Shown one piece after another: positions 6,321 through 21,675 of a stretch of DNA of 32,000 nt. The position numbers were made by a program, and so were the translations under genes. Every line of letters starts with the position of its first letter. The stretch's first letter is position 1. The stretch comes from Candidatus Lokiarchaeum ossiferum. Lineage in GTDB: Archaea > Asgardarchaeota > Lokiarchaeia > Sigyniarchaeales > Promethearchaeaceae. The DNA lies in assembly GCA_025839675.1 (NCBI GenBank), contig CP104013.1:2010001-2042000 (forward strand). The letters are read 5' to 3'. The notes under the pieces are model-generated. The model saw only the letters and a list, made by a program, of their open reading frames with translations. It did not search any database and had not been told where the DNA came from.

Positions 6321-8699
6321 TTATACGTATTTATATCCCGCACGAACCCAAGCGATCATTCCACCTTGAACCGAACGAATGTATTCAAATCCTGCCCTTT
6401 GAAGTAATCGACCGGCCATATACGAACGAGAACCACTATGACAGATTGTAATTATTTCTTGTTGTTTATATTGTTCCAATTTTTTCATCTCTCCTTGTAG
6501 TTTTCCCAATGGGATGAGAGTAGCTTCCTTCAAATGACCTTGATTCCATTCTGATTTTTCACGAGTATCAATGATAATTGGAGGTGGATTATCAGAATGC
6601 AATTCTGCATACAAATCTTCCGCAGTAATTTCAGATAAAATTGGAAGACCTACAGGCCGAATCGATTTATCTTTTTTCTTAGTTTCTTCAGATTCTGAAA
6701 TTGTAGGTGTTGCATCCACATATGCCTTCTTCTTGAAAACTGTGGCCAATAGGATATCACCCTTCTTCTTTAGAGAAATCAAATCAATCCCATCATTCAG
6801 CTCTACATAGGTTTTGATCGTGGATGCAAAACTAGGATCAGTAGCTTGCACTTGTAAAAATTGTTCTTCTGGAAGATCTTTCAAGCCTACAATCATAGAA
6901 TTTAAGGGTCCAGGGCAAGAAAGACCACATGCATTTACAACTTTTAATTCTTTTTGACCAGATATATCATCCCCCGGCCTCCCTAATCGTTGTTCTAAAA
7001 TCTTTACACGTGGATCCACAGCCATAGGTGCAAATTCTTCAGGTCTCATTTGAGCATATTCAAAGGTCTTATATCCACCAGTTAAATTATAAACTTCTGA
7101 AAATCCGAGTTGAATGAGAGTACGGTAAGCAAGATATCCCCGAAATCCAACTTGGCAATTAATATAGATAGGCTTATCTCGAGGAATCAAATCAATTTTT
7201 TTACGTAATTCTAAATCCGAAATATTAAGAGCCCCTTCGAAATGTGCAATATCAAATTCTTCTTTAGTCCTCACATCTAAGAATACCCCACCTTGTTCTC
7301 GAATTTGGTCAACATCATGCCAATGCCAGATTTTCATTGTCCTGCGAAGAATATTGGAACCTATAAAACCGAGCATGTTTACCGGATCTTTGGCAGATCC
7401 AAATGGAGGAGCATAAGAAAGTTCTAATCGTTCTAAATCAAATACAGTGCCCCCAAATTTCATTGCCGTTGCAATGACATCAATTCGTTTTTCAGTACCA
7501 CTCCCCCCAATTGCTTGAACCCCAAGAATTCTTCCAGTAGGTATCTCAAATAATAGTTTTAAAGAAATCGAAGAGGCACCAGGATAGTATCCAGCATGAT
7601 TATTAGGATGAGCGTAAATTTTTTCATATGAAATACTTTTAGTTTTTAAAGTTCTCTCATTCATACCCGTGGCAGCTGCAATCATTCCAAAGATTTTAAG
7701 GACGGAAGTGCCCAATACACCTTCACAATGCGTTTCAACACCTGCAATATTGTCAGCTGCAACCCTCCCTTGTCGATTGGCGATCCCTGCCAATGGAACA
7801 GCCCAGGGTTCATCTAAAACCATATTATGGACTTGAATTGCATCCCCTACAGCAAAAATATTAGGATCTGATGTATGCATGGTATGATCTACAACAATAT
7901 GTCCCCTTGCAGAAAGATCTAATCCAGCATTTCGAGCTAAACTAGTATCCGGCATCACTCCAACGGCCATGATCAGCAAATCCGTTTCTATAGAATCACC
8001 ACTTTCCAATTTTACAATGGTTTTTTCTCCAGGTTTAGTAAATCCAACGGCCCGTTCATTCAAGTGTAATTTTACGCCATTAAAGCCCATTTCTTGATGT
8101 GCAATTTGAGCCATTTCAAAATCAAACGGCATTAAAATTTGAGGTGCCATTTCTACGATTTCGACATCGAAGCCTCGCTCACGCAAATTCTCAGCAATTT
8201 CAATTCCAATATATCCCCCTCCAATTACTGTTGAATGATTTACTTTATTATATTCAATGAATTTAGTAATTTTCTCCACGTCTGGAATATCTCGAATAAC
8301 AAAGTGAGGCACTTCATTTAGACCAGGAATAGGAGGAACAATGGGTTTGGCTCCAGGTGATAGAACTAACACATCATAGGATAGCACGTACTCGTCATCA
8401 TTTTCCAGTTTTTTGACTGTAACTGTTTTTTCTTCTCGATTGATAGAAATTACCTCGTGCTTTACCCGCACATCAAAATTAAATCGTTCATTGAAGAGTT
8501 CCGGAGTCATTAATTCTAGTGCATCACGCTCTTTAATTACATTCCCTACATAGTAAGGGAGACCGCAATTAGCGAATGAGACATAAGGACCACGTTCGAG
8601 CATAATTATGTTAACATCTTCACTTAAACGACGTAATCGAGCTGCTGTACTTGCACCACCAGCAACTCCACCGACAATTACAACATTTTTGATAGACAT
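6321..8699 (-). CDS. CoA-disulfide/persulfide reductase family flavoprotein fused to rhodanese, TusA/SirA-like and second rhodanese domains
   Basis: - The FAD fold is VVIVGGVAGGAS, the redox Cys motif is SFANCGLPYY, and the NAD(P)H fold is VIGGGYIGIE, followed by FAVGDA.
- Rhodanese domain 1 has the loop CQVGFRG.
- The TusA-like domain has the CPxP motif ACGLSCPGP.
- Rhodanese domain 2 has the loop CHSGSRS.
- The track start at 8756 is GTG. The ATG at 8699 (MSIKNVVIVGG) places the GxGxxG fold at the N-terminus as usual. Confidence 0.85.
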   Translation of the reverse strand: MSIKNVVIVGGVAGGASTAARLRRLSEDVNIIMLERGPYVSFANCGLPYYVGNVIKERDALELMTPELFNERFNFDVRVKHEVISINREEKTVTVKKLENDDEYVLSYDVLVLSPGAKPIVPPIPGLNEVPHFVIRDIPDVEKITKFIEYNKVNHSTVIGGGYIGIEIAENLRERGFDVEIVEMAPQILMPFDFEMAQIAHQEMGFNGVKLHLNERAVGFTKPGEKTIVKLESGDSIETDLLIMAVGVMPDTSLARNAGLDLSARGHIVVDHTMHTSDPNIFAVGDAIQVHNMVLDEPWAVPLAGIANRQGRVAADNIAGVETHCEGVLGTSVLKIFGMIAAATGMNERTLKTKSISYEKIYAHPNNHAGYYPGASSISLKLLFEIPTGRILGVQAIGGSGTEKRIDVIATAMKFGGTVFDLERLELSYAPPFGSAKDPVNMLGFIGSNILRRTMKIWHWHDVDQIREQGGVFLDVRTKEEFDIAHFEGALNISDLELRKKIDLIPRDKPIYINCQVGFRGYLAYRTLIQLGFSEVYNLTGGYKTFEYAQMRPEEFAPMAVDPRVKILEQRLGRPGDDISGQKELKVVNACGLSCPGPLNSMIVGLKDLPEEQFLQVQATDPSFASTIKTYVELNDGIDLISLKKKGDILLATVFKKKAYVDATPTISESEETKKKDKSIRPVGLPILSEITAEDLYAELHSDNPPPIIIDTREKSEWNQGHLKEATLIPLGKLQGEMKKLEQYKQQEIITICHSGSRSYMAGRLLQRAGFEYIRSVQGGMIAWVRAGYKYV

Positions 8700-8855
8700 A
8701 TTCTTACTAGGAACTAGGTTTCCTAAGAATAAATAGTTTGTGAATATTATTTGCACATCCTTAATTTTTAGATATTATGGAATATAAATCGAGGAAAAGC
8801 ATAGAACAATAACATCAGAACGATCTATATATAAAAATTTCCACTAATGAATGAA

Positions 8856-10287: not shown

Positions 10288-11397
10288 TTATGGAAATTTG
10301 ATCTTTATATTCCTTAGCATTTTAGTAAAATAAACAAATATTGCCAATAATCCAACAATTAATATAGTTTCAGAATGATATCCGGGAACTGAATGTAATC
10401 TTTGAATAGATACCACTTCAATTTTAAAGTTTTGGATGGAAAAATCACCATTACAATCCCAAATTGTCAAATTACCCGCGTATGTCCCTGTAGCATTAAA
10501 GAGGTGAATATCTGAGGCAGTTGTTGAGTTAAAACCATCTCCAAATTGCCAAAGATAATTGATAATCGGATCTTCAGATTCTGAAATGCTGTAGAATTCC
10601 ACTTCATTTTTTGATTGTATCACTGAAACATTTGCAACGGGTAGATTATTTCCAGGAATAGTCCCCGATTTAATAGAATGAATTTCAAAATCAAGCATTC
10701 CAGAGATATTATCAGGCAATCTAATATCTAAGTAGTCAATTGCACCTAAAACGGGGTTGATTGTAAAATTTAATAAATAATCATAAGTGGAATCAATTAT
10801 TTCTGTAAAAAATGAATAATCTGTGAAATTAATATTCATCATCTCTTCTGAGAAAAATTCTTGCATATCATAAAGAGCCCCCAAATTTTCACCTAACATT
10901 TGGGTTATGGTTGTATTACACGGAAAAACTAATGGAAACTCAGGGAGATTTAGAATAATTTCACCTGTTTCTTTGGTATTTCCAATTAAAGTAGAATCAT
11001 CAGTCTTACTACGGAAATCATCATCAGCAAGCCAATGACCGACAGTGCCATTATAATCCCAAACATAAAAATCAGCCATAACTGAATAGAATGAATTTTC
11101 TGGAGAATCGCCGCAAAGATTCGGAATACAGGCTTCGGATATCACATATTTAAAATATGTATACTCACATTCCGATTGAGGTTCAAGAAACTCATAAATG
11201 AGAGAGTCTCCAACATTAATTCCCCAAGACCAAGAGTTATCAGAGGTTCCTACAATTTCTTCAATTGAAGAAGATATTGGAAAGACTCGAGTGTTATAAG
11301 ATAAAGTGCCCTCTAAATGAGTACAATTTGTAAAAATTACCCAGATCAATAGACTTGAGAAAATTTTTAGATTTACTTTGTTAATTAACCTCAACAA
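10288..11397 (-). CDS. secreted, C-terminally TM-anchored protein with a PKD domain
   Basis: - The PKD signature is YLWQFGDGFNSTTASDIHLFNATGTYAGNLTIWD.
- The C-terminal anchor is ILIVGLLAIFVYFTKMLRNIK.
- By my count there are about 10 N-X-S/T sequons.
- There is no ATG start. The track start at 11481 is TTG and would overlap the upstream gene by 68 nt.
- TTG at 11397 or 11394 gives a classical signal peptide (LRLINKVNLKIFSSLLIWVIFTNC). The start remains uncertain. Confidence 0.65.
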   Translation of the reverse strand: MLRLINKVNLKIFSSLLIWVIFTNCTHLEGTLSYNTRVFPISSSIEEIVGTSDNSWSWGINVGDSLIYEFLEPQSECEYTYFKYVISEACIPNLCGDSPENSFYSVMADFYVWDYNGTVGHWLADDDFRSKTDDSTLIGNTKETGEIILNLPEFPLVFPCNTTITQMLGENLGALYDMQEFFSEEMMNINFTDYSFFTEIIDSTYDYLLNFTINPVLGAIDYLDIRLPDNISGMLDFEIHSIKSGTIPGNNLPVANVSVIQSKNEVEFYSISESEDPIINYLWQFGDGFNSTTASDIHLFNATGTYAGNLTIWDCNGDFSIQNFKIEVVSIQRLHSVPGYHSETILIVGLLAIFVYFTKMLRNIKIKFP

Positions 11398-11413
11398 CCT
11401 CTTCAATGTGGAA

Positions 11414-14236
11414 TCAACCTGTGATTTTATGCTTTTTGATAAGAAATGAAAGGGACACAATGCAAAATAGCAAGCTCCCAAAGAAACTTATACTCATAGT
11501 TAAATAATCTACACTGATTAAAAAAGGAATCTCCGAAATTTTAGCAACATTTTGGAAAACTAAAATTGAGAGAGATGTACCTATGAACCCTCCAATAATA
11601 CTCGCAGAAAGGAATTTTATGCTCATTTCTTGAAACAGCATTCGAGATTTTTCTTTGGCACTTACCCCTATAGCGCTAAGAATTTTCAATTGGTGTTTTC
11701 TTTGATCCATCAATGAATTAAATGCAAAACTGATACCAATCAAATTCACAAAAACTGAGAATCCTATTATCAAATAATTATAAGTTCGGGTCAGTTGTTC
11801 ATTATTTTGAAAAAATTCACGTTTTTGAATAGGATCAGAAATAACATAGTTAAGATTATTATAAAACTGAGCATTGAAAGATTTTACAAAACTATCACGA
11901 CATTCTAGAGTTGATTCTTCTAACTTGAGCAAAATTTTATCTATTTTTTGGTTGAAAGCATTAAAATCACCAGATTGATTTAGAAGATCAAAGTACAGGG
12001 ATGGGGACACGATTATAGCTTCATTGGAAGAGAGTGAAACTTGATTTGTATGAATATTGGTAAATCCAGGTAACATGGAAACTATCCCAGCAACCTGAAG
12101 AATTCTTTTTTCAGCTAATTCAGGAAAAGTTTCCCAAATCGATAAAGAAACATAGTCTCCGACTTGATCAATACCAAGAAAAAGTGCACACGCCTCGGTA
12201 ATTATACATGAATTGTTCATATTGTACAAATCATCAAAAGAATGGAGGGTACTGTTGCTTCCTTCCATCCATCCGATATTTTCAAGAGGAATGATAGAAG
12301 AATAATTGCAATCGACAGCCATCAATCCACAAGGAATTTCTTGAAGTTGACCTAAATTGCTGAGAGAATTGCGAAATGTCGGATCTTTTCCTTTAGAAGA
12401 CATTTGTAGATTAATATTATTGGATTGAGATTGAAAATTGATTTCCGTCTCGAAAGAAAAAGTTGCATACATAGCTGAAACTTGAGCAACTGACGTCATA
12501 GATAAAATTTGATCCAAGACAATTCCCGAGATAAAATTATTTTCCTGAAGATTCCCCCCATTTATAATGTGAAGATCGGTTCCATATTCATATTGAATCG
12601 TTGTAATATACCCAAACATGCGAAGCTGTTGCGATGTAGCGATAAACTGGTTAAACGTAAATATGATTAGGACCATATAAACGTAAGGAGGATGATTAAT
12701 ATGTTTAGTTGCGAACCACATCTTTATTTGATGAAATGAACGCCGATCTCTTTTTCTCCATTTTAAGAGTTGCATTAATAATATATTGAAGTATTTCAAC
12801 AAATTTAGGGCGATTATGATAAAACCGCTTAAGATTATAATTAGTAATAGTAAGAAAAATCTTCGAATGAGGAGTGAATCGTTGGAAATTGCAATTTTTG
12901 GTAAGAAAAAGAAGATTATTTCTCCCATAAGAAGAATAAAACCTCCAATGAAAAGGGACTTGTAATTGACATTACCAAATTTTTTCGAAGTAAAAAATTG
13001 AATACCACCATCACGGTTTGGTTGCAATATCTGAATTAAATTCTTATTCCTCATAAAAAACAAGGGAAGAATACAAAGAAGGATACTAAGCCCAATCGTA
13101 AAAATATTAAAAGAATTACGGAAAATTGCCTCAAAATTGATCCCAAATAGAAGAAAAGCGAGTAAATGCCCTCCTAAAATCCCCAAAACAAGGCTGGGAC
13201 CCATATAGATGATATTTTGAATTAATTGAAACTGTGCAATTTTTTGTGGTGAAGCACCAATAACTTGAAATAATCCATGATCACGAATGGAATAGACAAA
13301 AATTGAATGAAGAATGGAATATATGACAAATGCAAAGAGAATGACCATTAAAATCTTCATTAAATCATAAATTATACCTGAAAAAAAAGTAAATTCATGA
13401 ACTTCTTTAAGTTGGATTAAGCGCGGTTCTAAGATAAGATAGGTTTCATCCAGAAAATTAATTATTTTTTGATTGATAGCATTAATACGTAGTTGAGTTC
13501 CATCTAAATCACCTAAATCATAAATAATTTCAGGATGCTCAAATTGACCAACTAAGAAATTAATGCGATTTTCGAGCTGGCAGAATTCTTGAGTAAAATA
13601 TAGATTGGTGAGTATCAAAGCGGATTCATAAATGGCGAAGCGACCATCATTTTCAACAATGGCATCAATCATAAGAGATTCTTCTCCCGTTGCAACCTGT
13701 ACTAAAATTTGATCGTTAATGCTTGAATTTAATAAAATAGCCGCATTTTTGGTAAGAACGCAATGTCCCGGAAGTATTTCATTTTCATATAGCAAATGGG
13801 TATTCTGAAGCTGTTCATCGCATAGCCATAATGATCCCAATGTTGGATTTGAAAATTCTTGTTGTGAATCTATCCCACAAATTAATATTTCTTGCTGAGG
13901 AAAAACAGAATCTACAATATCTTTAGTTGTAAAAGAAGGAATATATAGACGAGGAATTAAGCATTCGATGGATTCTATCTGATTGGGTATTTCTTTAGCA
14001 AGAGATTCATTAAAATATATATTATAACCTACGGTCTCCATCTTTTTAGATATAATTATATCTTGATTACCAAAATATGTCGATGAATTTTGAAAGTAAA
14101 CATAATTCAAAGAGGATGTTAAAGAACCTATAAGAGTAAGAAATATAATGGTTATTGTTAAACAAGTGATATATAATCCGGTCTTTTTTTTATGTTTACT
14201 GAAAGATTTACTCAAGAAAAACAATATTTTCATCAT
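11414..14236 (-). CDS. ABC transporter permease with two FtsX/MacB-type modules and two large extracytoplasmic domains (940 aa)
   Basis: It has two FtsX-like blocks: SIRDHGLFQVIGASPQKIAQFQLIQNIIYMGPSLVLGILGG and MDQRKHQLKILSAIGVSAKEKSRMLFQEMSIKFLSASIIGGFIG. Each block follows a hydrophilic region of 250 aa or more, and there is an N-terminal TM. Its ATG (14236-14234) overlaps the upstream stop (ATGA). Confidence 0.8.
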   Translation of the reverse strand: MMKILFFLSKSFSKHKKKTGLYITCLTITIIFLTLIGSLTSSLNYVYFQNSSTYFGNQDIIISKKMETVGYNIYFNESLAKEIPNQIESIECLIPRLYIPSFTTKDIVDSVFPQQEILICGIDSQQEFSNPTLGSLWLCDEQLQNTHLLYENEILPGHCVLTKNAAILLNSSINDQILVQVATGEESLMIDAIVENDGRFAIYESALILTNLYFTQEFCQLENRINFLVGQFEHPEIIYDLGDLDGTQLRINAINQKIINFLDETYLILEPRLIQLKEVHEFTFFSGIIYDLMKILMVILFAFVIYSILHSIFVYSIRDHGLFQVIGASPQKIAQFQLIQNIIYMGPSLVLGILGGHLLAFLLFGINFEAIFRNSFNIFTIGLSILLCILPLFFMRNKNLIQILQPNRDGGIQFFTSKKFGNVNYKSLFIGGFILLMGEIIFFFLPKIAISNDSLLIRRFFLLLLIIILSGFIIIALNLLKYFNILLMQLLKWRKRDRRSFHQIKMWFATKHINHPPYVYMVLIIFTFNQFIATSQQLRMFGYITTIQYEYGTDLHIINGGNLQENNFISGIVLDQILSMTSVAQVSAMYATFSFETEINFQSQSNNINLQMSSKGKDPTFRNSLSNLGQLQEIPCGLMAVDCNYSSIIPLENIGWMEGSNSTLHSFDDLYNMNNSCIITEACALFLGIDQVGDYVSLSIWETFPELAEKRILQVAGIVSMLPGFTNIHTNQVSLSSNEAIIVSPSLYFDLLNQSGDFNAFNQKIDKILLKLEESTLECRDSFVKSFNAQFYNNLNYVISDPIQKREFFQNNEQLTRTYNYLIIGFSVFVNLIGISFAFNSLMDQRKHQLKILSAIGVSAKEKSRMLFQEMSIKFLSASIIGGFIGTSLSILVFQNVAKISEIPFLISVDYLTMSISFFGSLLFCIVSLSFLIKKHKITG

Positions 14237-17200
14237 AGGTGAACTTTACTCCTTCTTTTTATGTGGATTATGAAAAACATTAGAGACACACCAATGACCA
14301 TACTTGATGAGAGTCCAAAAATAAGATTAAATGTTGATCTAACTTGCAGAGTTTTGATTTCACTTGTGATTTTTATCTGAGAAACGTAAAGATATCTAAC
14401 TTGAGCTCCCAATAATTCAAAATTACCTAGTTGCTCAAGATTTAGGGAATAGTTGAATGAAAAAGACTCACCCACACCTAAAATGAAAATAGATTTCTGC
14501 AGAACACCTTGGTCTAAAGACATAGATTGAATAGGAAAACCATAGTAATCATCAATTACCAGATTTTGAATGGGAATATCCCCGAAATTTGTAATTTTTA
14601 TAGAAACCACAACATTTTGACCCGTCCATCCTTGAATTCGATTCAAAATTTTGGAAATCGTGATGTTTGGAGACCCAAGTGGATGAGAAATACATGAAGA
14701 GAAATGATACAAGTAAGAATCCAATCCATTCATCCAAATCAAGGGGGATAATATAGCGTAGGGAAATATTATCTCAAAAATAAATACAGTTGTATAAGTT
14801 TCTAAAGGAGTTAGAAGGGAAATGTTTGAGTTTTGAGTGATATTTGTTAAAATATAGGAATCACTTGGAAATAATGGAAGAAGATTCACATTTGTAATAT
14901 TTGAATCTCCGACATTCATCATGGTACAATTCACAAGAAGTATGGATTTATTATGAATAGAAATAGAAGTATCAAGACTTAATTGAGGAATAAAAGGCAA
15001 GTGCAATTTATCATCAAAATATGGCTCGACGAACATTTCAACTTCATTTGATAACAAAATTCTTTGGTATGATTCATCTTCCCACCAAACTTTGGTAGAG
15101 CGTATTATTAGCGAATTTGGAGAAAAAAAGGTATAACTGAATTCTGTTTGAAGTGTAGAGGCATTAAAATATGGGATATTTAATGACAATATCTTCCCAT
15201 TCCGATCAAAATCACCAGAATCAATTAAAATTCCAACAATAGAAACATTTATCTTAATATTCGTAAAATTTTTATTTCCAGAATGATGAAGAGAAACGAT
15301 ATAACTATTCTGATACCCAGAACGTGTAAAATTTTGAACGAGTCGAGCGGTGGCTTTGATAGATGTTGATGAATTTAAAAAAATTGCTAGAGAATTAGAT
15401 CGGATATCATGAAATTCATAGCCATGTTCAGATCCATAACGGAATGTAGCAGGATCATTAGTTAGAAAAGTAGAATTTCCTGTATCTAAAGTGATTTGTG
15501 AGAAAAAGTTCAAAGTTGAATTTGGTTGAATCACCCAGTTGAGAGGATTATACATACTATAAGAATAATTGAAGGACTGAGCATATTCTACCAGTTGTGA
15601 TTCATTATAGGAAGTATGAACTGTTAAATCCGCTAAATTATCAAGAATGGATGCAGTAAAGGCAGGAGAATAACGAGAACGAACAGATTCATTTAAAATG
15701 TTTGGAAAAATCTGGGAAAAATAGCCTTGTCCTAAAAGATCAATAGAAAAAAAGCGCGGGATATCGCTTGAAAACATTGATTTAGTATTATAGCCCAAAA
15801 CTTCCAAACGATTTGAAATGGAGTTATCAGGAGAAAGGTTATTTATCCCAAATGAAGATAAATCGGGCATAGGAAGCCCCCAAACATCAGAATTACATAA
15901 GTTCTTTACTTTTAGGGTAAAATTAACCGTTTGATTGTCAAAAAAAAAGGGTTCCGAATGGTTCAAGGATATCATTTCTTTTTGAATTTTAATTAACGTG
16001 GGATTTTCTTTTAATTTGTACTTCATATAAAAATCTGGAACTGAATCAAAGAACAGGCAAGGAAGAAAAGATAAAGCAAATGGAGAGAATAAATCAAAAA
16101 AATCTTCCAAATTGGGTGCCAAATTTTGAACTTTCTTAGGAAGAGTTTTTAACTGCGAAATACTCCCTTGAGATTCAAATAGCACATTCCATTGATAATC
16201 CCTAAAGTTCAATGAAATATCAGCACCATTACTTGCTAAATAAAGAAAATGTTGGAGAGGCACAATGTTTTCAGAAGAAATATTAAACTTTTGAGGCGAA
16301 ACTTCAAGAATATCGGAATGTGCACATACAATCGATATACCAGAAAAAAGACCAAATAAAGAATTCAAACATTCAGTACTTAATTCTATTGGAAAATTAT
16401 CAGGTAACCCTAAAGCTTTCCGGAAATTGAATATATATTCGCCATTTTTCGTTTTAATTCCTTCCGAATTACCAGTATAACTCACTTGCAAGATATGAAA
16501 AGGAAAATTTATCAAATCATCAATATTCTGATCCAGGATTAAATTATCAACCTCTGCGGAAACCAGAGCTCTATCTGCGGAGTTACCCTCCATTTCGGAA
16601 AAATCATTGACTAAAGAGAGCAAGGGGATTCGATTTAGCGGAGTATAAATATCAAAATTTAAAGATTCATAATGTTTTTCCCAAAAATGAGTAATAACAT
16701 TTATGGTTGTCGGGGAATGAAAATAAAATAAGGATTCTTGAACAAAATTAGATGAAGAAATAGAAGTATTTAATGGTTGATTTAAAAAACTAGGATTAAA
16801 ATAACCTTCAGTTGATATAGAACCGAGAACATTTTCAGTAAACTGCGAAAAGTTAGAAATAAGACCGTAAAATGGAAAAAAGTAAATGTTCTCGTCGGTC
16901 ACATTTTGAAGCTCAATAATGTTTAGTTCAAATTTGGTTTCAAATAGTTTAACCACCCTATCCCTTAAAGATGCGACCACATTTGCAGAATAAGATGTCT
17001 CATAAACTAAAAAACCCAAAAAACCAAATTTAGAAACAGAAGGAGCATTTTTCCCATATGAAAATGTGGAGAGAGGAATAGGATTCTGCAATTCATTTGT
17101 AAAGGAGAGATAAAATGAAGCATTTGAAAAACATGGTTCTAAAAGATCTAAACCAAACATATTTCGACTATTTGAAACACGAGAATGATGAATGACAGAA

Positions 17201-17412
17201 GTATCTTGGGAAATTTCAGCTAAAATATTTTCGACATATAAGTTATCCCCTAACGATTGTGATTCCAATGGATTACCAACTTTATCAGAAGATTTTTGTG
17301 TAGAGGTAAGAAAATCATTTTGAATCATATTTCTATTTTCAAAAATATTCCCCCAACTTAACGAAGACAATGAAATAAGATATATCAAGAATAATATTTT
17401 CTGGTGTTTCAA
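14233..17412 (-). CDS. 1059-aa secreted, C-terminally anchored, sequon-rich surface protein with CARDB/DUF11-like beta-sandwich modules
   Basis: - The signal peptide is MKHQKILFLIYLISLSSLSWG, with a TTG start and AAGGGGT about 9 nt upstream.
- The C-terminal TM plus basic tail is FGLSSSMVIGVSLMFFIIHIKRRSK.
- My manual count gives about 26 N-X-S/T sequons.
- Three segments resemble the first strand of CARDB/DUF11 domains: TVNFTLKVKNLCNSDV, ILLVNCTMMNVGDSNITNV and NVVVSIKITNFGDIPIQNLVI. Confidence 0.7.
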   Translation of the reverse strand: MKHQKILFLIYLISLSSLSWGNIFENRNMIQNDFLTSTQKSSDKVGNPLESQSLGDNLYVENILAEISQDTSVIHHSRVSNSRNMFGLDLLEPCFSNASFYLSFTNELQNPIPLSTFSYGKNAPSVSKFGFLGFLVYETSYSANVVASLRDRVVKLFETKFELNIIELQNVTDENIYFFPFYGLISNFSQFTENVLGSISTEGYFNPSFLNQPLNTSISSSNFVQESLFYFHSPTTINVITHFWEKHYESLNFDIYTPLNRIPLLSLVNDFSEMEGNSADRALVSAEVDNLILDQNIDDLINFPFHILQVSYTGNSEGIKTKNGEYIFNFRKALGLPDNFPIELSTECLNSLFGLFSGISIVCAHSDILEVSPQKFNISSENIVPLQHFLYLASNGADISLNFRDYQWNVLFESQGSISQLKTLPKKVQNLAPNLEDFFDLFSPFALSFLPCLFFDSVPDFYMKYKLKENPTLIKIQKEMISLNHSEPFFFDNQTVNFTLKVKNLCNSDVWGLPMPDLSSFGINNLSPDNSISNRLEVLGYNTKSMFSSDIPRFFSIDLLGQGYFSQIFPNILNESVRSRYSPAFTASILDNLADLTVHTSYNESQLVEYAQSFNYSYSMYNPLNWVIQPNSTLNFFSQITLDTGNSTFLTNDPATFRYGSEHGYEFHDIRSNSLAIFLNSSTSIKATARLVQNFTRSGYQNSYIVSLHHSGNKNFTNIKINVSIVGILIDSGDFDRNGKILSLNIPYFNASTLQTEFSYTFFSPNSLIIRSTKVWWEDESYQRILLSNEVEMFVEPYFDDKLHLPFIPQLSLDTSISIHNKSILLVNCTMMNVGDSNITNVNLLPLFPSDSYILTNITQNSNISLLTPLETYTTVFIFEIIFPYAILSPLIWMNGLDSYLYHFSSCISHPLGSPNITISKILNRIQGWTGQNVVVSIKITNFGDIPIQNLVIDDYYGFPIQSMSLDQGVLQKSIFILGVGESFSFNYSLNLEQLGNFELLGAQVRYLYVSQIKITSEIKTLQVRSTFNLIFGLSSSMVIGVSLMFFIIHIKRRSKVHL

Positions 17413-17435
17413 TTAATTTGACCCCTTAAGTAATT

Positions 17436-18428
17436 TTAAGATTCAATATATTTCTTTAAGATTAATGTATTATTTTTGATTGTATAGAGCAACTGATTCT
17501 TTTGGATCATTTCGCTAAGGAGTATTTCAAATGGTATGGGAAGATTTTTGAGAATATTTGCTTCAATATTTTGTTTTATCGATTCAAAGCTCAATTCAGT
17601 TTGAGAATGCATTAAAGCTTGATTTATTAAGAAATATATCCTATTTTGGCATATGAGAACATAATCTAAAGGATTTTTTGTTGATAAAGGAATTTGAGTG
17701 GATGACTCAGAAGAAATAGAAGAAGTAAGCATTTCATTGGAATCATCAATTTTTCCATCCTTAATATGAATAATTCGACTACAATATGAGGCAACCAGGG
17801 GATCATGAGTCGCAACGATAAAGGTTGCACCTTTTTGGTTAAGTTGACGCAAAAGTTCCAATATTTCATGAGCAGATTTAGAATCTAAATCCCCTGTGGG
17901 TTCATCTAACAAAACAATTGTAGGATCATTTGCAAATGCGCGAGCAATGGCAACTCTTTGCTGTTGCCCTCCAGAAAGTTCAGAAGGAGCATGATCTGCT
18001 CGATCTTTCAATCCCACATCATCAAGTAACGTTAAAGCTTTTGTTCGAGCTTCATTCTTTGACAATCCTTGAAATAGCATTGGGGACATAACATTTTCTA
18101 CCGCTGATAATAGAGGGAAAAGATTATAAAATTGAAATACGACCCCAATTTTATCCCGACGTAGGTGTGCTTTTTCTGTTTCGGTCAACTTTGATAAATC
18201 ATCTCCCTCAAGATAAACAGTACCCCTTGAAGGATCATCTAGCCCCCCAATGATATTTAGGAGAGTTGTTTTTCCACAACCAGAAGGTCCCATAATACCG
18301 ACAAATTCGTGTTCTTTAAATTCAAGATCAATTCCTCGTAAGGCAGGAACAGCATTGGTTCCTAATAAGAACGTTTTATGCAAATTTTCAACGATTATTT
18401 TGGTTTCATTTAATTGGGTAGTAGTCAT
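17436..18428 (-). CDS. ABC transporter ATP-binding protein, MacB/LolD-like (COG1136 type) with a C-terminal extension of about 100 aa
   Basis: It has Walker [10 protein letters not shown], a Q-loop VFQFYNL, the signature [14 protein letters not shown], Walker [13 protein letters not shown] and an H-loop VATHD. The canonical NBD ends near IHIKDGKI (about aa 227), and 100 further residues follow. Confidence 0.9.
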
Positions 18429-18440
18429 TGTGATTTTCCT

Positions 18441-21290
18441 TTAAATAGTTAAATTTGGAGCAATTTTGGTTTCAATCTTCTGTCGGAAGATACGATGATA
18501 GGTAAATTTGAGATATAAGCCTGAAATTATAAACAGAGCAATTATAAGATCAAAAGAAAGGGAAAAAGGAGTTTGGACGCGATAAGCAACTTCCCCTAAA
18601 GAAGAAAAGGTATAAGCCATAAAACTGCCTCCCAAAACACCCACAATTCCATTAGCAAATAATAAAATTAATAATTCGACAGAGAATACTTTTTCAATAT
18701 CCTTGATACTAAGGCCTATTCCTCGTAAAGCGCGAATTTCATTTTGGCGTTCTACAAAAATAGAATAAGCAGAAACACTCAAATTGGAAACAGCCGTAAA
18801 AATGAAAATAAATAATAAGATCGACACGCCATACTTGATATTTGAAAATAATTTTTGATCTTGAAAGATCCATTGAGTGGTTGTAATTATTTCAAGGTTG
18901 TAATTGGTTAAAAGGGTATATATATCTGAACGTACAAGATCTTCGTCAGCATTGGCACTTACCTTTACTAAAATTCGCGATGCATATCCTTGATTACCAG
19001 TATCAGAGGTCATTCCAAAGCCTTGATTAAATAAAGAACGTGAAAATAATATTCCATTTTCATTCAGATAATCAAACGATTGCTTATCGAGATTGGTAAA
19101 TTCTTCAAAACTTCTTACTCCGGGAATTTGTGTAAAGATCCCAGCAACATTAACAATTTCCTCTTGGATTGTATTATTATTTTTAAATTTTAACCGAAGA
19201 GAATCATTTATCGTAATTTCCAAAGTAGCTGCGAGTTTTGCAAATATAATTACCGATGTGTGTGAGAATAATTGTTCAAAGGCACCCTCAAAAGTCCCCA
19301 TATCCATCCGGATTATATCTTGATAGATCGTTCTGGCAAAATCTTGATCAACTGCAACTGAAAACACATTCGTGGAGATAACTCCTCCAATCTCACTGAT
19401 GGATAGCGATAAATCTTGATAAACGTGTGGATTTCCGGGAAAATTGTGATTTTGCAAATCACCAGTTCTTAAAACAGCAGTTGAACTTTCAACACCTTCG
19501 ACTTCTCGCACTTTATCTCTAAGATCCATTGGAAGTAATGTTTGGTCAGAGCTATGAATAAACATGTCCGAACCCGTTTTAAGTTGTTTTTGTAAGATCA
19601 TTTGATTCGTGACATTCGTCATAAATGAACTTGTAAAAATTATCATGCAAAAACTAAAGAGAAGCATGAAATTAATCAAATTATTCCTTCGATTATGCCG
19701 AAAAATGGACATTTTAAGAAAATTTCGGATATTTGATAAGACTGGGGAGAAAACGGCCAAAAATCCCCGTATAAGGAGAGGTAAAATACCCAAACCAAGA
19801 AGAATAAATCCTATCATGACACAAAATAGCGTAATACTCATCAAATTTAAAAAAAAGTCTATTTTTCCTGAGATCATAATATTTGGTAAAGACATAAAAA
19901 CAAACAATCCCACCAGACATAACACAAAACCAACAAAAGTCAAATAGAGAAGAGTTTTTTTACCATTGGTTTTGAATGATATCTTACTTTCAATAAATCT
20001 ATCTGGATAAATGCTTCTAATTAAGGGCATATTATACGCATAACGAGCTGGAACAAAGGAAACCAAAGTGGATATAATAATCCCTAGACTACAGCCATAG
20101 AACACATTTAGAGGTCGAATTCTTATCGAAGTGAGATCAAATTTCTGCAAGAGGGGGCTTAATATCAAGAAAAAGAGAACAGAAGCAAGACTACCTATCA
20201 GAGATCCCACGATACCCAATTTAAATCCTTGGAAAGTTATTTTCTTTAAAATGTGATCTTTAGAGGCCCCAATCGTTCGTTCAATTCCAAATTCTCTAAT
20301 TCTATCATTTAATGAAGTCGTCAATGTGCTATAAATAAAAGTGGTACTCAAAAATACCGCAGATAACCCCATAAAAAACGTTAAGGCAGTGACCAATAAT
20401 TGAAAAGTTTTTGAATTACGAGCATTAGCTAATTGTTTATATTCTAAAGTCAAATCTTGAAGACTAGGCATATAATTTTGTGCAGCTACTATGATTTGAG
20501 CCCCTTGATTCTGAAGAAAATCGTTGGTTTCCTCCATAGTTCCAAAGGTGTATAAATCTGTTTCAGGCACTAAATCTATGAGCATAGTATTTACTTTGTG
20601 ATTCCACGAGATCCCATTTGATAAAGGAATTTTGGTGTTAAGTAAGTCCCAAAATGTTGGTAAATTTACAATTAACTCAAAATTAGGATTTTTTCCTAAA
20701 CCAGCATTCTCATCCTTTTCAAATATCCCTACAACAAATAAACTATGGGTAAAATTTAATTGGGGGAATGTGATCTCGAGAACAGTGCCAATTGAAACCT
20801 GATTTTGTTCACTATATCGATCGGATATGATACAATTGTCAGAGGATAACCCTTGAAAAATAGACTGAGTCCAATTTTCACTCCGAAATAGGAGGGATTC
20901 TTCATTGAATCCAAAATTCTGATTATGTTCGCCAGAAAAATCTACCGCAAGCATAGTAGCAGAGTCGAAGTTTGAGTCACCATTCTTTTTAAGAAAATCC
21001 ATTTTTATTCGCGAGAATGATCTACTGAACTCAGATATTGACGAAGAAAGAGAATCAACCATCAGATCAGAATTGAAAAACATAGAAGGTGAATAAATAT
21101 CAATATCGACATCATTTGAAGATGTTAAATATTCGGTTAGGGAAGCATCAATTGAATCACCCATAAAAAGTACCGAAGTAAAGAAAAAAATGGCCAAACT
21201 CAACCCTACAATTGCAATTCTTCCATCCTTCAATTGTTTTGAGTTAAATTTTGGAAATTTTTGCGTTTTTTCTTTTAATTTCCCATTCAA
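18441..21290 (-). CDS. ABC transporter permease with two FtsX/MacB-type modules and two large extracytoplasmic domains (949 aa)
   Basis: It has two FtsX-like blocks: LNDRIREFGIERTIGASKDHILKKITFQGFKLGIVGSLIGS and VERQNEIRALRGIGLSIKDIEKVFSVELLILLFANGIVGVLGG. The start is TTG (no ATG before TM1), and the stop lies 12 nt before the ATPase start. Confidence 0.8.
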   Translation of the reverse strand: MNGKLKEKTQKFPKFNSKQLKDGRIAIVGLSLAIFFFTSVLFMGDSIDASLTEYLTSSNDVDIDIYSPSMFFNSDLMVDSLSSSISEFSRSFSRIKMDFLKKNGDSNFDSATMLAVDFSGEHNQNFGFNEESLLFRSENWTQSIFQGLSSDNCIISDRYSEQNQVSIGTVLEITFPQLNFTHSLFVVGIFEKDENAGLGKNPNFELIVNLPTFWDLLNTKIPLSNGISWNHKVNTMLIDLVPETDLYTFGTMEETNDFLQNQGAQIIVAAQNYMPSLQDLTLEYKQLANARNSKTFQLLVTALTFFMGLSAVFLSTTFIYSTLTTSLNDRIREFGIERTIGASKDHILKKITFQGFKLGIVGSLIGSLASVLFFLILSPLLQKFDLTSIRIRPLNVFYGCSLGIIISTLVSFVPARYAYNMPLIRSIYPDRFIESKISFKTNGKKTLLYLTFVGFVLCLVGLFVFMSLPNIMISGKIDFFLNLMSITLFCVMIGFILLGLGILPLLIRGFLAVFSPVLSNIRNFLKMSIFRHNRRNNLINFMLLFSFCMIIFTSSFMTNVTNQMILQKQLKTGSDMFIHSSDQTLLPMDLRDKVREVEGVESSTAVLRTGDLQNHNFPGNPHVYQDLSLSISEIGGVISTNVFSVAVDQDFARTIYQDIIRMDMGTFEGAFEQLFSHTSVIIFAKLAATLEITINDSLRLKFKNNNTIQEEIVNVAGIFTQIPGVRSFEEFTNLDKQSFDYLNENGILFSRSLFNQGFGMTSDTGNQGYASRILVKVSANADEDLVRSDIYTLLTNYNLEIITTTQWIFQDQKLFSNIKYGVSILLFIFIFTAVSNLSVSAYSIFVERQNEIRALRGIGLSIKDIEKVFSVELLILLFANGIVGVLGGSFMAYTFSSLGEVAYRVQTPFSLSFDLIIALFIISGLYLKFTYHRIFRQKIETKIAPNLTI

Positions 21291-21514
21291 TTTCAGTTAC
21301 ATCACATCTACAAATTCCAAGAGACCCTTGGTTATATTTTTACTTTTAATTCCTAATAAAAATTGTTGTCAAACAATCATTATTCAAAAAGAAAGGAAAA
21401 AATTGAGTCAATTACGTATCCCACAAAAGATGCGTAATTTTCAGTCAATTTACAAACCTATCAAATCCAATTGCAGAAGTGTCAAAGATCCCAATTTTTG
21501 AATCATTTCGGGAT

Positions 21515-21580
21515 GCGGACGAAAAAATGACAAATGAAGACTAAAAACAACCTCACACAATTCGATCCGCTTTTTGTTCT
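21515..21580 (+). other. GC-rich long-range stem (GCGGACGAA ... TTCGATCCGC) followed by a T-run; orphan terminator-like or small structured RNA element
   Basis: Positions 21515-21523 pair with 21561-21570 (9 bp with one bulged A). TTTTTGTTCTTT (21571-21582) follows directly. It is located in the 385-nt divergent intergenic region, about 95 nt upstream of the PfkB start. Confidence 0.25.
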
Positions 21581-21675
21581 TTCAATATCTTCCGATCAAA
21601 AAAATTTTAGATCATTACTTGGAAAAAACCAAGGAGAAGTAAATCCTTTTTTTGTTCATAGCTGCTATTTATAAC

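Follow-up and report, generated by a model that had tools for sequence, protein, structure and literature searches.

The window studied here is a stretch of 32,000 nucleotides (nt) from Candidatus Lokiarchaeum ossiferum (contig CP104013.1, positions 2,010,001 to 2,042,000), and our subject is a cluster of five genes at window positions 10288-21290 that combines an ATP-binding cassette (ABC) engine with predicted surface proteins. All five open reading frames (ORFs) are intact in the ORF listing and lie on the minus strand, in the order permease A, ATPase, BIG, permease B and PKD protein. Permease A (18441-21290) has 949 amino acids (aa), an alternative TTG start at 21233 being possible instead of 21290, and the ABC ATPase (17436-18428) has 330 aa. 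BIG (14233-17412), our name for the central protein of 1059 aa, matches NEF87_001663 of L. ossiferum at 100% identity. It is followed by permease B (11414-14236; 940 aa) and by the gene for the PKD accessory surface protein (10288-11406, in an ORF that reaches 11481).

The genes are tightly packed. Permease A and the ATPase are separated by a 12-nt gap with AGGA ahead of the ATPase ATG, the ATPase and BIG by a 23-nt gap with GGGG ahead of the TTG start of BIG, and BIG overlaps permease B by the 4 nt of an ATGA (14233-14236). The full PKD ORF of 397 aa (10288-11481) runs into permease B, and a start at an in-frame TTG codon further in (11406, or 11397/11394) leaves 7-16 nt between permease B and the PKD gene; because the TTG at 11406 gives this spacing together with a good signal peptide, the protein probably has 372 aa rather than 397. 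AGGA and GGGG are Shine-Dalgarno-like motifs before internal starts, and these motifs and gaps of -4 to 23 nt are the grounds for reading the five genes as one operon. That this operon would encode a surface machine found in Asgard archaea alone, as a short-form paralogue, is, on the evidence of the sequences, about an even bet.

By its profile matches the ABC engine is a bona fide type VII (MacB/FtsX) system that stands outside every named subfamily. Pfam finds FtsX (PF02687, cut-off 25.5) on two stretches of each permease, with 74.1 bits in permease A and 42.7 bits in permease B, and MacB_PCD (PF12704, cut-off 27) on two stretches of permease A (38.8 bits); for the permease-B type the MacB_PCD match appears in homologues only (45.9 bits in L006; loci other than the window are cited by such numbers). 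Hydropathy lays permease A out as 10 transmembrane (TM) segments and two ectodomains (ECDs): TM1, ECD1 (~250 aa), TM2-4, TM5,6, TM7, ECD2 (~260 aa) and TM8-10, the ectodomains (aa ~44-295 and ~557-813) being of the MacB type. Permease B shows nine segments in the same layout, with TM7 under the threshold, and loops of ~250 aa precede both FtsX modules in both permeases. The two proteins are colinear paralogues (23% identity by BLASTP), and the PDB sequence matches of permease A are YtrF, LolE, LolF and MacB. Each permease is thus best described, from these matches, as a single-chain pseudo-dimer of the MacB/FtsX fold, permease A belonging to an 'upstream' type and permease B to a separate 'downstream-type' clade.

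The only ATPase gene of the cluster matches ABC_tran with 128.9 bits (nucleotide-binding domain, NBD, at aa ~13-235) and keeps Walker A, Q-loop, signature, Walker B and H-loop intact, followed by an extra C-terminal domain of ~75 aa (aa ~255-330) that is conserved in 75 homologues. It falls in the LolD/MacB/FtsE clade: its best NCBIfam matches are LolD, MacB, DarD, YbbA and FtsE, none at equivalog level for LolD (235.8 bits, cut-off 307.75), MacB (226.8 bits) or FtsE (203.7 bits, cut-off 264.85). The FtsX models of NCBIfam (20-21 bits against cut-offs of 225-255) and lolCE (48.1 bits against 362) are likewise not reached, and the ADOP model TIGR03434 (41.6 bits against 622.3) aligns with one FtsX module only, so that the permeases are not members of that family. 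An original prediction, made from the letters of this stretch alone, had claimed five packed same-strand genes in this order, two FtsX modules per permease, each after a large hydrophilic domain, and a single NBD gene. All of this agrees with the ORF coordinates, with gaps of 12, 23, -4 and ~7-16 nt, with Pfam and hydropathy, and with the one ATPase and its intact motifs.

BIG consists of a signal peptide, an alpha/beta N-terminal region (aa ~56-630), an array of four to five beta-sandwich domains (aa ~633-1025), a C-terminal TM segment (14263-14334) and a basic tail of 10 aa, and is, as modelled, a type I anchored ectoprotein. The AlphaFold2 (AF2) model has a pLDDT (predicted local distance difference test) of 81.9 and a pTM (predicted template-modelling score) of 0.79 with a 35-sequence alignment; these 35 sequences were needed, as an alignment of three gave a pLDDT of 32. 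The N-terminal region (aa 56-630; 15523-17247) holds many family-invariant residues and is an orphan: it had no Pfam matches in 16 family members, no sequence relatives in the PDB and no relation to the permease ectodomains in hhalign.

The one Pfam match of the window BIG is TRAP_beta (PF05753; aa 915-1023, E 2e-7, 31 bits, cut-off 22.4), on the membrane-proximal beta-sandwich (aa 915-1023; 14344-14670), a domain of CARDB/DUF11/BatD/TRAP-beta type. For this domain a PDB sequence search gives TRAP-beta at E ~1e-3, and Foldseek superposes the last domain and TM segment on TRAP-beta 8b5l_v, from a ribosome-translocon structure, with a target TM-score of 0.68. No other part of BIG has a relative of solved structure, and this relative is eukaryotic. 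Relatives of BIG match DUF11, CARDB and BatD on the same C-terminal beta-sandwiches. Pfam BatD (PF13584) has no match on the window BIG; some homologues reach it (P0016, 30.6 bits), hence the NCBI name 'BatD family protein'. The original prediction had left it to profile searches to decide whether the protein falls into a characterised family; they place it in none, the matches being limited to these beta-sandwiches of CARDB/DUF11/BatD/TRAP-beta type.

The likeness to TRAP-beta (SSR2) is one of domains only: the membrane-proximal domain and TM segment score above the Pfam gathering threshold and can be superposed, but TRAP-beta is a single-domain translocon protein of the endoplasmic reticulum of ~180 aa, whereas BIG has 1059 aa, ~900 of them unrelated, and its genomic partners are ABC permeases rather than Sec or oligosaccharyltransferase (OST) genes. 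Asgard archaea have separate small TRAP-beta homologues (PMC11417166), and by size, genomic context and this separate homologue we rule out that BIG is the Asgard TRAP-beta. Counts by Pfam of Asgard 'TRAP-beta' eukaryotic signature proteins may include the ABC-linked giants, and orthogroup 1400 of the L. ossiferum paper carries the label TRAP_beta. The other PDB matches in Foldseek are tandem beta-sandwich 'legs' (integrin alpha, alpha-2-macroglobulin/C3, mastigoneme) with query TM-scores of ~0.1, and we rejected a specific homology to integrin or alpha-2-macroglobulin on these generic matches. N-X-S/T sequons exceed those of shuffled sequences in BIG (26 against 16.5 +/- 3.5) and in the PKD protein (10 against 4.4 +/- 1.9), with no such enrichment in the ATPase or either permease; this is compatible with, and no proof of, the two being glycoproteins. 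Glycoproteomics of P. syntrophicum detected few glycoproteins (PMC11284389).

BIG and the permeases stay together far beyond L. ossiferum. A scan of species-level Asgard genomes with a profile of permease A gave 80 loci, all from Promethearchaeota (including metagenome-assembled genomes labelled Thor-, Hermod-, Hod- and Odinarchaeota), to which 9 metagenomic loci were added. Wherever sequence is available, BIG adjoins a tandem-FtsX permease, and a second, paralogous permease is present wherever the locus reaches far enough. In the first count BIG, an ORF of ~1300 aa in its common form (full-length E 1e-170 to 1e-245), lay immediately downstream of the permease in 64 of the 74 loci with enough sequence, at a median gap of 15 nt. 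Re-translation found it in eight of the ten exceptions as an ORF off the locus end or interrupted, and in the other two (L064 and L066) the match is to the second permease, with the S8 subtilase gene that usually follows BIG lying upstream in L066 and inferred there in L064. The ATPase is immediately upstream of the permease in 66 of 68 loci. The S8 gene came after BIG in 57 of 61 loci at first count, and the four apparent exceptions have it too, three after re-translation (L049, L058 and L083) and one in an overlapping ORF (L062); L032, which has no intact permease ORF, shows BIG and then S8. In all three loci long enough to tell, the second permease follows S8.

A profile of BIG matches over its full length the window protein and 68 further ORFs from the loci compared, plus one fragment (E 1e-102 to 0). 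Among 1.84 billion representatives, HMMER returned 72 clusters at E<1e-30, of which ~45 are true members of the family, the rest matching through a CARDB-like domain only, in giant repeat proteins. Word-indexed searches gave just 2-3 proteins; the exhaustive HMMER search and the permease-seeded genome scan were the productive ones. All named members come from Asgard archaea, with the annotation 'hypothetical' or 'BatD family', and BIG is, by these searches, an Asgard-only orphan family.

The linkage holds across subfamilies that have diverged widely. Common-form BIGs are 36-90% identical to one another (median 47%), and the window BIG is shorter by ~250 aa and only 21-24% identical to any of them. 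At this distance BIG still sits with its permeases in the window, L001/L002, L084, L086, L087, L088, L089, L090, L091 and L092. The invariant core is permease, BIG and permease; around it the order, the flanks, the position of the ATPase and the fourth, surface protein differ from case to case. The permeases fall into two clades, an upstream and a downstream type, and no subfamily has lost either of them, which makes the pair an old one that is always retained. The gene order of L. ossiferum is not due to chance, because it recurs identically in a second lokiarchaeon (L001/L002, BIG 46% identical) between different flanks.

These comparisons sort out what had been proposed about the arrangement. 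Two permeases sharing one ATPase had been described, and both paralogues are indeed kept wherever the locus extends far enough. Both surface proteins had been held to be tied to the ABC genes: this stands for BIG as firmly as genome comparison allows, its synteny beside tandem-FtsX permeases being conserved in four subfamilies, and does not for the PKD protein, present in two of the eight short-form clusters. Of the supposed five-gene module, permease-BIG-permease, plus the ATPase, is conserved, and the five-gene arrangement as such is confined to L. ossiferum and one relative.

In the common form the order is ATPase (~392 aa), permease (~1000), BIG (~1310), anchored S8 subtilase (~1600) and permease (~990). 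The S8 protein carries S8, Ig-like and Reelin-like domains, a TM segment and a cytoplasmic Cys-rich tail, and 55 of 58 such proteins keep the motifs of the catalytic triad. A tree of 35 representative BIGs separates this S8 clade of the common form from two other long-form clades and from the short-form clade (1030-1246 aa), to which the window protein belongs. In the other clades the arrangements are diverse. L088 reads ATPase-permease-BIG-S8-permease, and L087 reads ATPase-permease-BIG-permease followed by a VWA-domain gene; L084 has permease-BIG-permease and a 703-aa protein with the ATPase on the opposite strand, and in L086 an NHL protein stands on either side of BIG-permease-permease. 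L089 is permease-permease-BIG, L090 and L091 are permease-BIG-permease, and L092 is BIG-permease-permease; an S8-domain gene lies ~3 kb from the L090 cluster on the opposite strand. Short-form clusters with no ATPase gene beside them, which are the majority, must borrow the ATPase of another cluster or use an unlinked gene.

One genome may hold more than one version. The complete 6.27-Mb genome CP163304.1 carries both an S8-type cluster (L088) and a short-form cluster (L089), and a table of Rodrigues-Oliveira et al. lists, for L. ossiferum and P. syntrophicum, consecutive orthogroups S8, TRAP_beta, FtsX, ABC_tran and Gtr1/RagA-Arf. This run matches the arrangement of L088, and therefore the window cluster is most likely a divergent paralogue that coexists with an S8-type cluster in the L. 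ossiferum genome. In CP163304.1 a 513-aa Gtr1/RagA-Arf GTPase gene (L088 4198-5739, plus strand) lies ~340 nt upstream of the ATPase; orthogroup 1403, which matches this GTPase, follows the ABC orthogroup, and the machine may have a small GTPase as its neighbour in the cytoplasm.

Some further features of the common form may be recorded here. Its S8 proteins end in a TM segment and a Cys-rich, Zn-ribbon-like cytoplasmic tail (L003 13872-18704; L071 16966-21810), its ATPases have a Lys/Glu-rich N-terminal extension of ~70 aa (L071 8739-9917), and its BIGs have a conserved cytoplasmic tail of 25-73 aa, with HEAT repeats there in P0004. The window versions have neither the ATPase extension nor that BIG tail. 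A contact between tail and extension was considered and not adopted, their co-variation being only partial, and is kept as a lead. The label 'polymorphic toxin', given to the S8 orthogroup in asCOG, was rejected, the S8 proteins here having no RNase domain. Upstream of the common-form cluster, ~1-9 kb before the ATPase, loci L004-L083 share, over many Asgard lineages, a syntenic block of unrelated genes whose order is unusually stable for genomes so far apart, with genes for an RNase III-like protein, an RPB9-type Zn-ribbon, two GDPD phosphodiesterases, an ADP-forming acyl-CoA synthetase-like protein and a major facilitator superfamily (MFS) transporter.

The PKD protein is, by its distribution in these loci, a facultative accessory of the system. 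It has a signal peptide, a domain of ~230 aa that recurs in accessories of sister clusters, a PKD domain (10444-10641; PKD_4 with 37.1 bits at a cut-off of 27, PKD with 23.9 bits at 23.5) and a C-terminal stretch of VPGY, TM segment and basic tail (10291-10392, SVPGYHSETILIVGLLAIFVYFTKMLRNIKIKFP). Its sole positional orthologue is in L001/L002 (42% identity), and a scan of metagenomes for relatives found none. The N-terminal domain is related to the 703-aa accessory of L084 (E 4e-7 and 6e-10), and that accessory to the NHL protein of L086, so that relatives serve as accessories in two short-form clusters besides the two with the PKD protein itself. All of these accessories close with [VI]PGY, a hydrophobic helix and a basic tail. 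The L084 and L086 proteins (L084_703 and L086_778) pass the Loki-CTERM model NF033507 with 21.8 and 25.5 bits (cut-off 19.9); the window protein has no match to this model, though the VPGY-TM-basic layout is present. Its C-terminal 'anchor' is probably a Loki-CTERM-like sorting signal rather than a simple anchor. The original prediction of a 397-aa PKD anchored protein was accordingly right in the PKD domain, and probably wrong in the length and the anchor.

Loki-CTERM-like tails occur within 10 kb of five of the eight short-form clusters, a count that covers these neighbourhoods only. Tails of [VI]PGY, TM segment and Lys/Arg residues are carried by the accessory proteins at L084 16458-18581, L086 3553-5889 and L090 11690-13399 (minus strand). 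The substrates of the PGF-CTERM/archaeosortase pathway are an analogue of Loki-CTERM proteins; archaeosortase processes PGF-CTERM proteins to lipid-anchored forms, which provides a model for possible Loki-CTERM processing. A literature search for the Loki-CTERM sorting signal found no paper.

Around the cluster, the sole large non-coding gap is an A+T-rich region of 361 nt (21291-21651), which we presume to be the promoter region of the operon. On its far side lies a divergent PfkB kinase gene, and downstream, 52 nt from the cluster, a Cys/Met pyridoxal phosphate (PLP) enzyme gene has its own TATA-like box; both are unrelated to the cluster. A scan of the window for bacterial (sigma-70) promoters and terminators gave background level, with a model unsuited to archaea. 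An ORF of 811 aa (6321-8756, minus strand), two genes downstream of the cluster and apparently unrelated to it, appears by eye to combine a pyridine-nucleotide disulfide (CoA-disulfide-type) reductase with rhodanese-like and SirA/TusA-like modules.

The work that MacB, LolCDE and FtsEX do is mechanical and takes place outside the membrane, and FtsEX regulates operon-linked hydrolase partners (EnvC, PcsB, CwlO and RipC). By analogy, we propose that each 10-TM tandem-FtsX permease would bind a dimer of the single ATPase, in a BceAB-like stoichiometry, that the two paralogous permeases would act together, and that membrane-anchored BIG would be their obligate extracytoplasmic partner. As in other type VII systems, the engine would probably pump no solute across the membrane. 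ATP-driven movements would pass through the MacB-type ectodomains to BIG as mechanical client or adaptor, and BIG would then position, activate or release an accessory surface protein that varies between forms: the S8 subtilase with its intact catalytic triad in the common one, the PKD protein with its Loki-CTERM-like signal in the window, or an NHL protein elsewhere. We regard this overall reading, an Asgard surface machine whose engine acts mechanically on BIG and accessories, as evenly poised between right and wrong.

Several points count against it. Type VII ABC systems include true exporters and resistance pumps (MacB, BceAB, HrtBA); the N-terminal 570 aa of BIG have no recognisable relative, with no hint of coupling to the permease ectodomains; most short-form clusters have no adjacent ATPase (L086, L089, L090, L091 and L092); and several of them have no accessory protein, from which it follows that the accessory is not the sole purpose of the system. 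In common-form loci synteny also extends upstream to genes with no relation to the system (RNase III, GDPD and others), so that synteny within the common form is weak evidence and only the comparison across subfamilies weighs. A rival reading is an ordinary efflux or resistance pump like BceAB, MacB or HrtBA, in which permeases and ATPase would rid the outer leaflet of antimicrobial peptides, lipids or other hydrophobic compounds by export or detoxification, and in which BIG and the PKD protein would be passengers, or a canopy that protects or senses, and not clients of a mechanical engine. The closest NCBIfam and PDB matches (LolD, MacB, DarD, bacteriocin exporters, YtrF, LolE), the 10-TM single-chain permease like that of BceB, and several paralogous copies per genome, as in a detoxification family, all fit such a pump. 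Yet the scores stay far below all equivalog cut-offs, neither a two-component system nor a bacteriocin or biosynthetic gene is found nearby, and a pump leaves unexplained both the constant retention of two distinct permeases and an orphan ectoprotein of 1000-1300 aa that invariably stands between or beside them in every subfamily; we think it unlikely.

The S8 subtilase suggests another role, ATP-gated control of a surface protease for nutrient acquisition, with the window copy degenerate or re-purposed after loss of the protease. Asgard archaea grow on peptides, control of extracellular hydrolases by FtsEX-type systems is an established precedent, and the near-constant S8 gene after BIG (57 of 61 common-form loci, with S8 in the four apparent exceptions too) and the intact triads (55 of 58) speak for it, as do the shortness (~250 aa less) and low identity (21-24% only) of the window BIG. 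The protease is not an invariant element, however, since subfamily B and all eight short-form clusters keep permeases and BIG intact with no S8 in the operon, and no gene of the window cluster is broken, with little space between one and the next, so that we consider this explanation quite improbable. For the short-form clade a Lol-like extraction is attractive, the engine pulling processed Loki-CTERM proteins from the membrane and handing them to BIG as scaffold or chaperone for display or shedding: there are LolCDE-type matches, two sister accessories pass the Loki-CTERM model, the window PKD protein shares the VPGY-TM-basic layout, and Loki-CTERM-like proteins lie within 10 kb of five of the eight clusters. 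That proximity may reflect how common Loki-CTERM proteins are in these genomes at large, the window PKD protein has no score in the model, and the literature search found no paper on a signal whose sorting enzyme and chemistry would both be hypothetical. For the S8 clade extraction is not attractive: the widespread S8-type clusters have no Loki-CTERM protein, and the subtilase has a plain TM segment with a cytoplasmic Cys-rich tail. As an account of the system we find it very doubtful.

The surface-machine reading can be carried further than we would ourselves go. The two permeases, the ATPase and BIG might assemble into one heteromeric machine, driven by ATP, that would mark the Asgard archaea as a group: almost all lineages would have it, with several paralogous versions in each genome, and it would deploy, activate or remodel surface proteins (subtilases, Loki-CTERM adhesin-like proteins) on an envelope that has no S-layer. 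It might explain part of the 'complex surface densities' in electron cryo-tomography (cryo-ET) of L. ossiferum, and the TRAP-beta-like module of BIG might share ancestry with the eukaryotic translocon subunit. In this full form we think the proposal unlikely.

A full-text literature search found no description of the gene module, and current annotation of the genes goes no further than 'antimicrobial peptide ABC transporter', 'S-layer domain', 'BatD family' or 'hypothetical'. An assignment to anti-phage defence was tried with PADLOC and rejected, the ATPase giving generic ABC/AAA matches only and the permeases, BIG and the PKD protein none. The original prediction that the arrangement is no described system is in keeping with both searches. 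Judged from the sequences, the type VII kind of ABC system is known, and the lineage-specific obligate partner and the two-permease architecture are new.

Cultured Asgard archaea have no ordered S-layer and bear many uncharacterised surface structures on a single membrane, structures thought to mediate cell-cell contacts relevant to eukaryogenesis (PMC9834061). The module probably builds or controls part of this unusual cell surface. Its conservation in genomes of the Loki, Thor, Hermod, Hod, Odin and Sigyn types makes it a testable candidate for one such structure, a candidate that couples a cytoplasmic ATPase to an orphan ectoprotein of 1000-1300 aa and has been duplicated into several subfamilies per genome. 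If the reading is true, the module would give archaea their first type VII system in which a protein partner is obligate and genetically hard-wired, and ABC systems a new architecture, two paralogous tandem-FtsX permeases around one client, on a protein-studded envelope without S-layer that has so far had no assigned machinery (PMC9834061).

Among known systems, MacB and LolCDE share with the Asgard cluster the 4-TM FtsX module, the MacB_PCD ectodomain and an ATPase closest to LolD and MacB. They differ in that the Asgard permeases are internally duplicated and work with no outer membrane, no adaptor or TolC, and no LolA or LolB. The permeases of BceAB, YbbP and ADOP come nearer in build, each a single chain of 10 TM segments in which two FtsX bundles are joined by two extra helices; binding of an ATPase dimer would be expected in BceAB-type and Asgard permeases alike, and ADOP has, like permease A, two MacB_PCD and two FtsX modules. 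BceB has one ectodomain and is accompanied by the two-component system BceRS, whereas the Asgard permeases have two ectodomains, and no BceRS-like kinase or regulator is found next to the cluster in the window or in related loci. We know of no BceAB, YbbP or ADOP system that is tied to a giant anchored protein.

A parallel in function would be FtsEX. The Asgard permeases depart from it as two paralogues, each a single-chain tandem duplication with 10 TM segments and two MacB-type ectodomains, and the Asgard partner is a TM-anchored orphan of 1000-1300 aa, not a coiled-coil regulator, in cells that, being archaeal, have no peptidoglycan. Both systems have an ATPase of the LolD/FtsE clade and a permease of FtsX fold with an ectodomain; FtsEX controls hydrolases, and the Asgard common form contains one, the S8 subtilase. 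FtsEX transports no solute and acts on a genetically linked extracytoplasmic protein, as we propose for the Asgard system and BIG.

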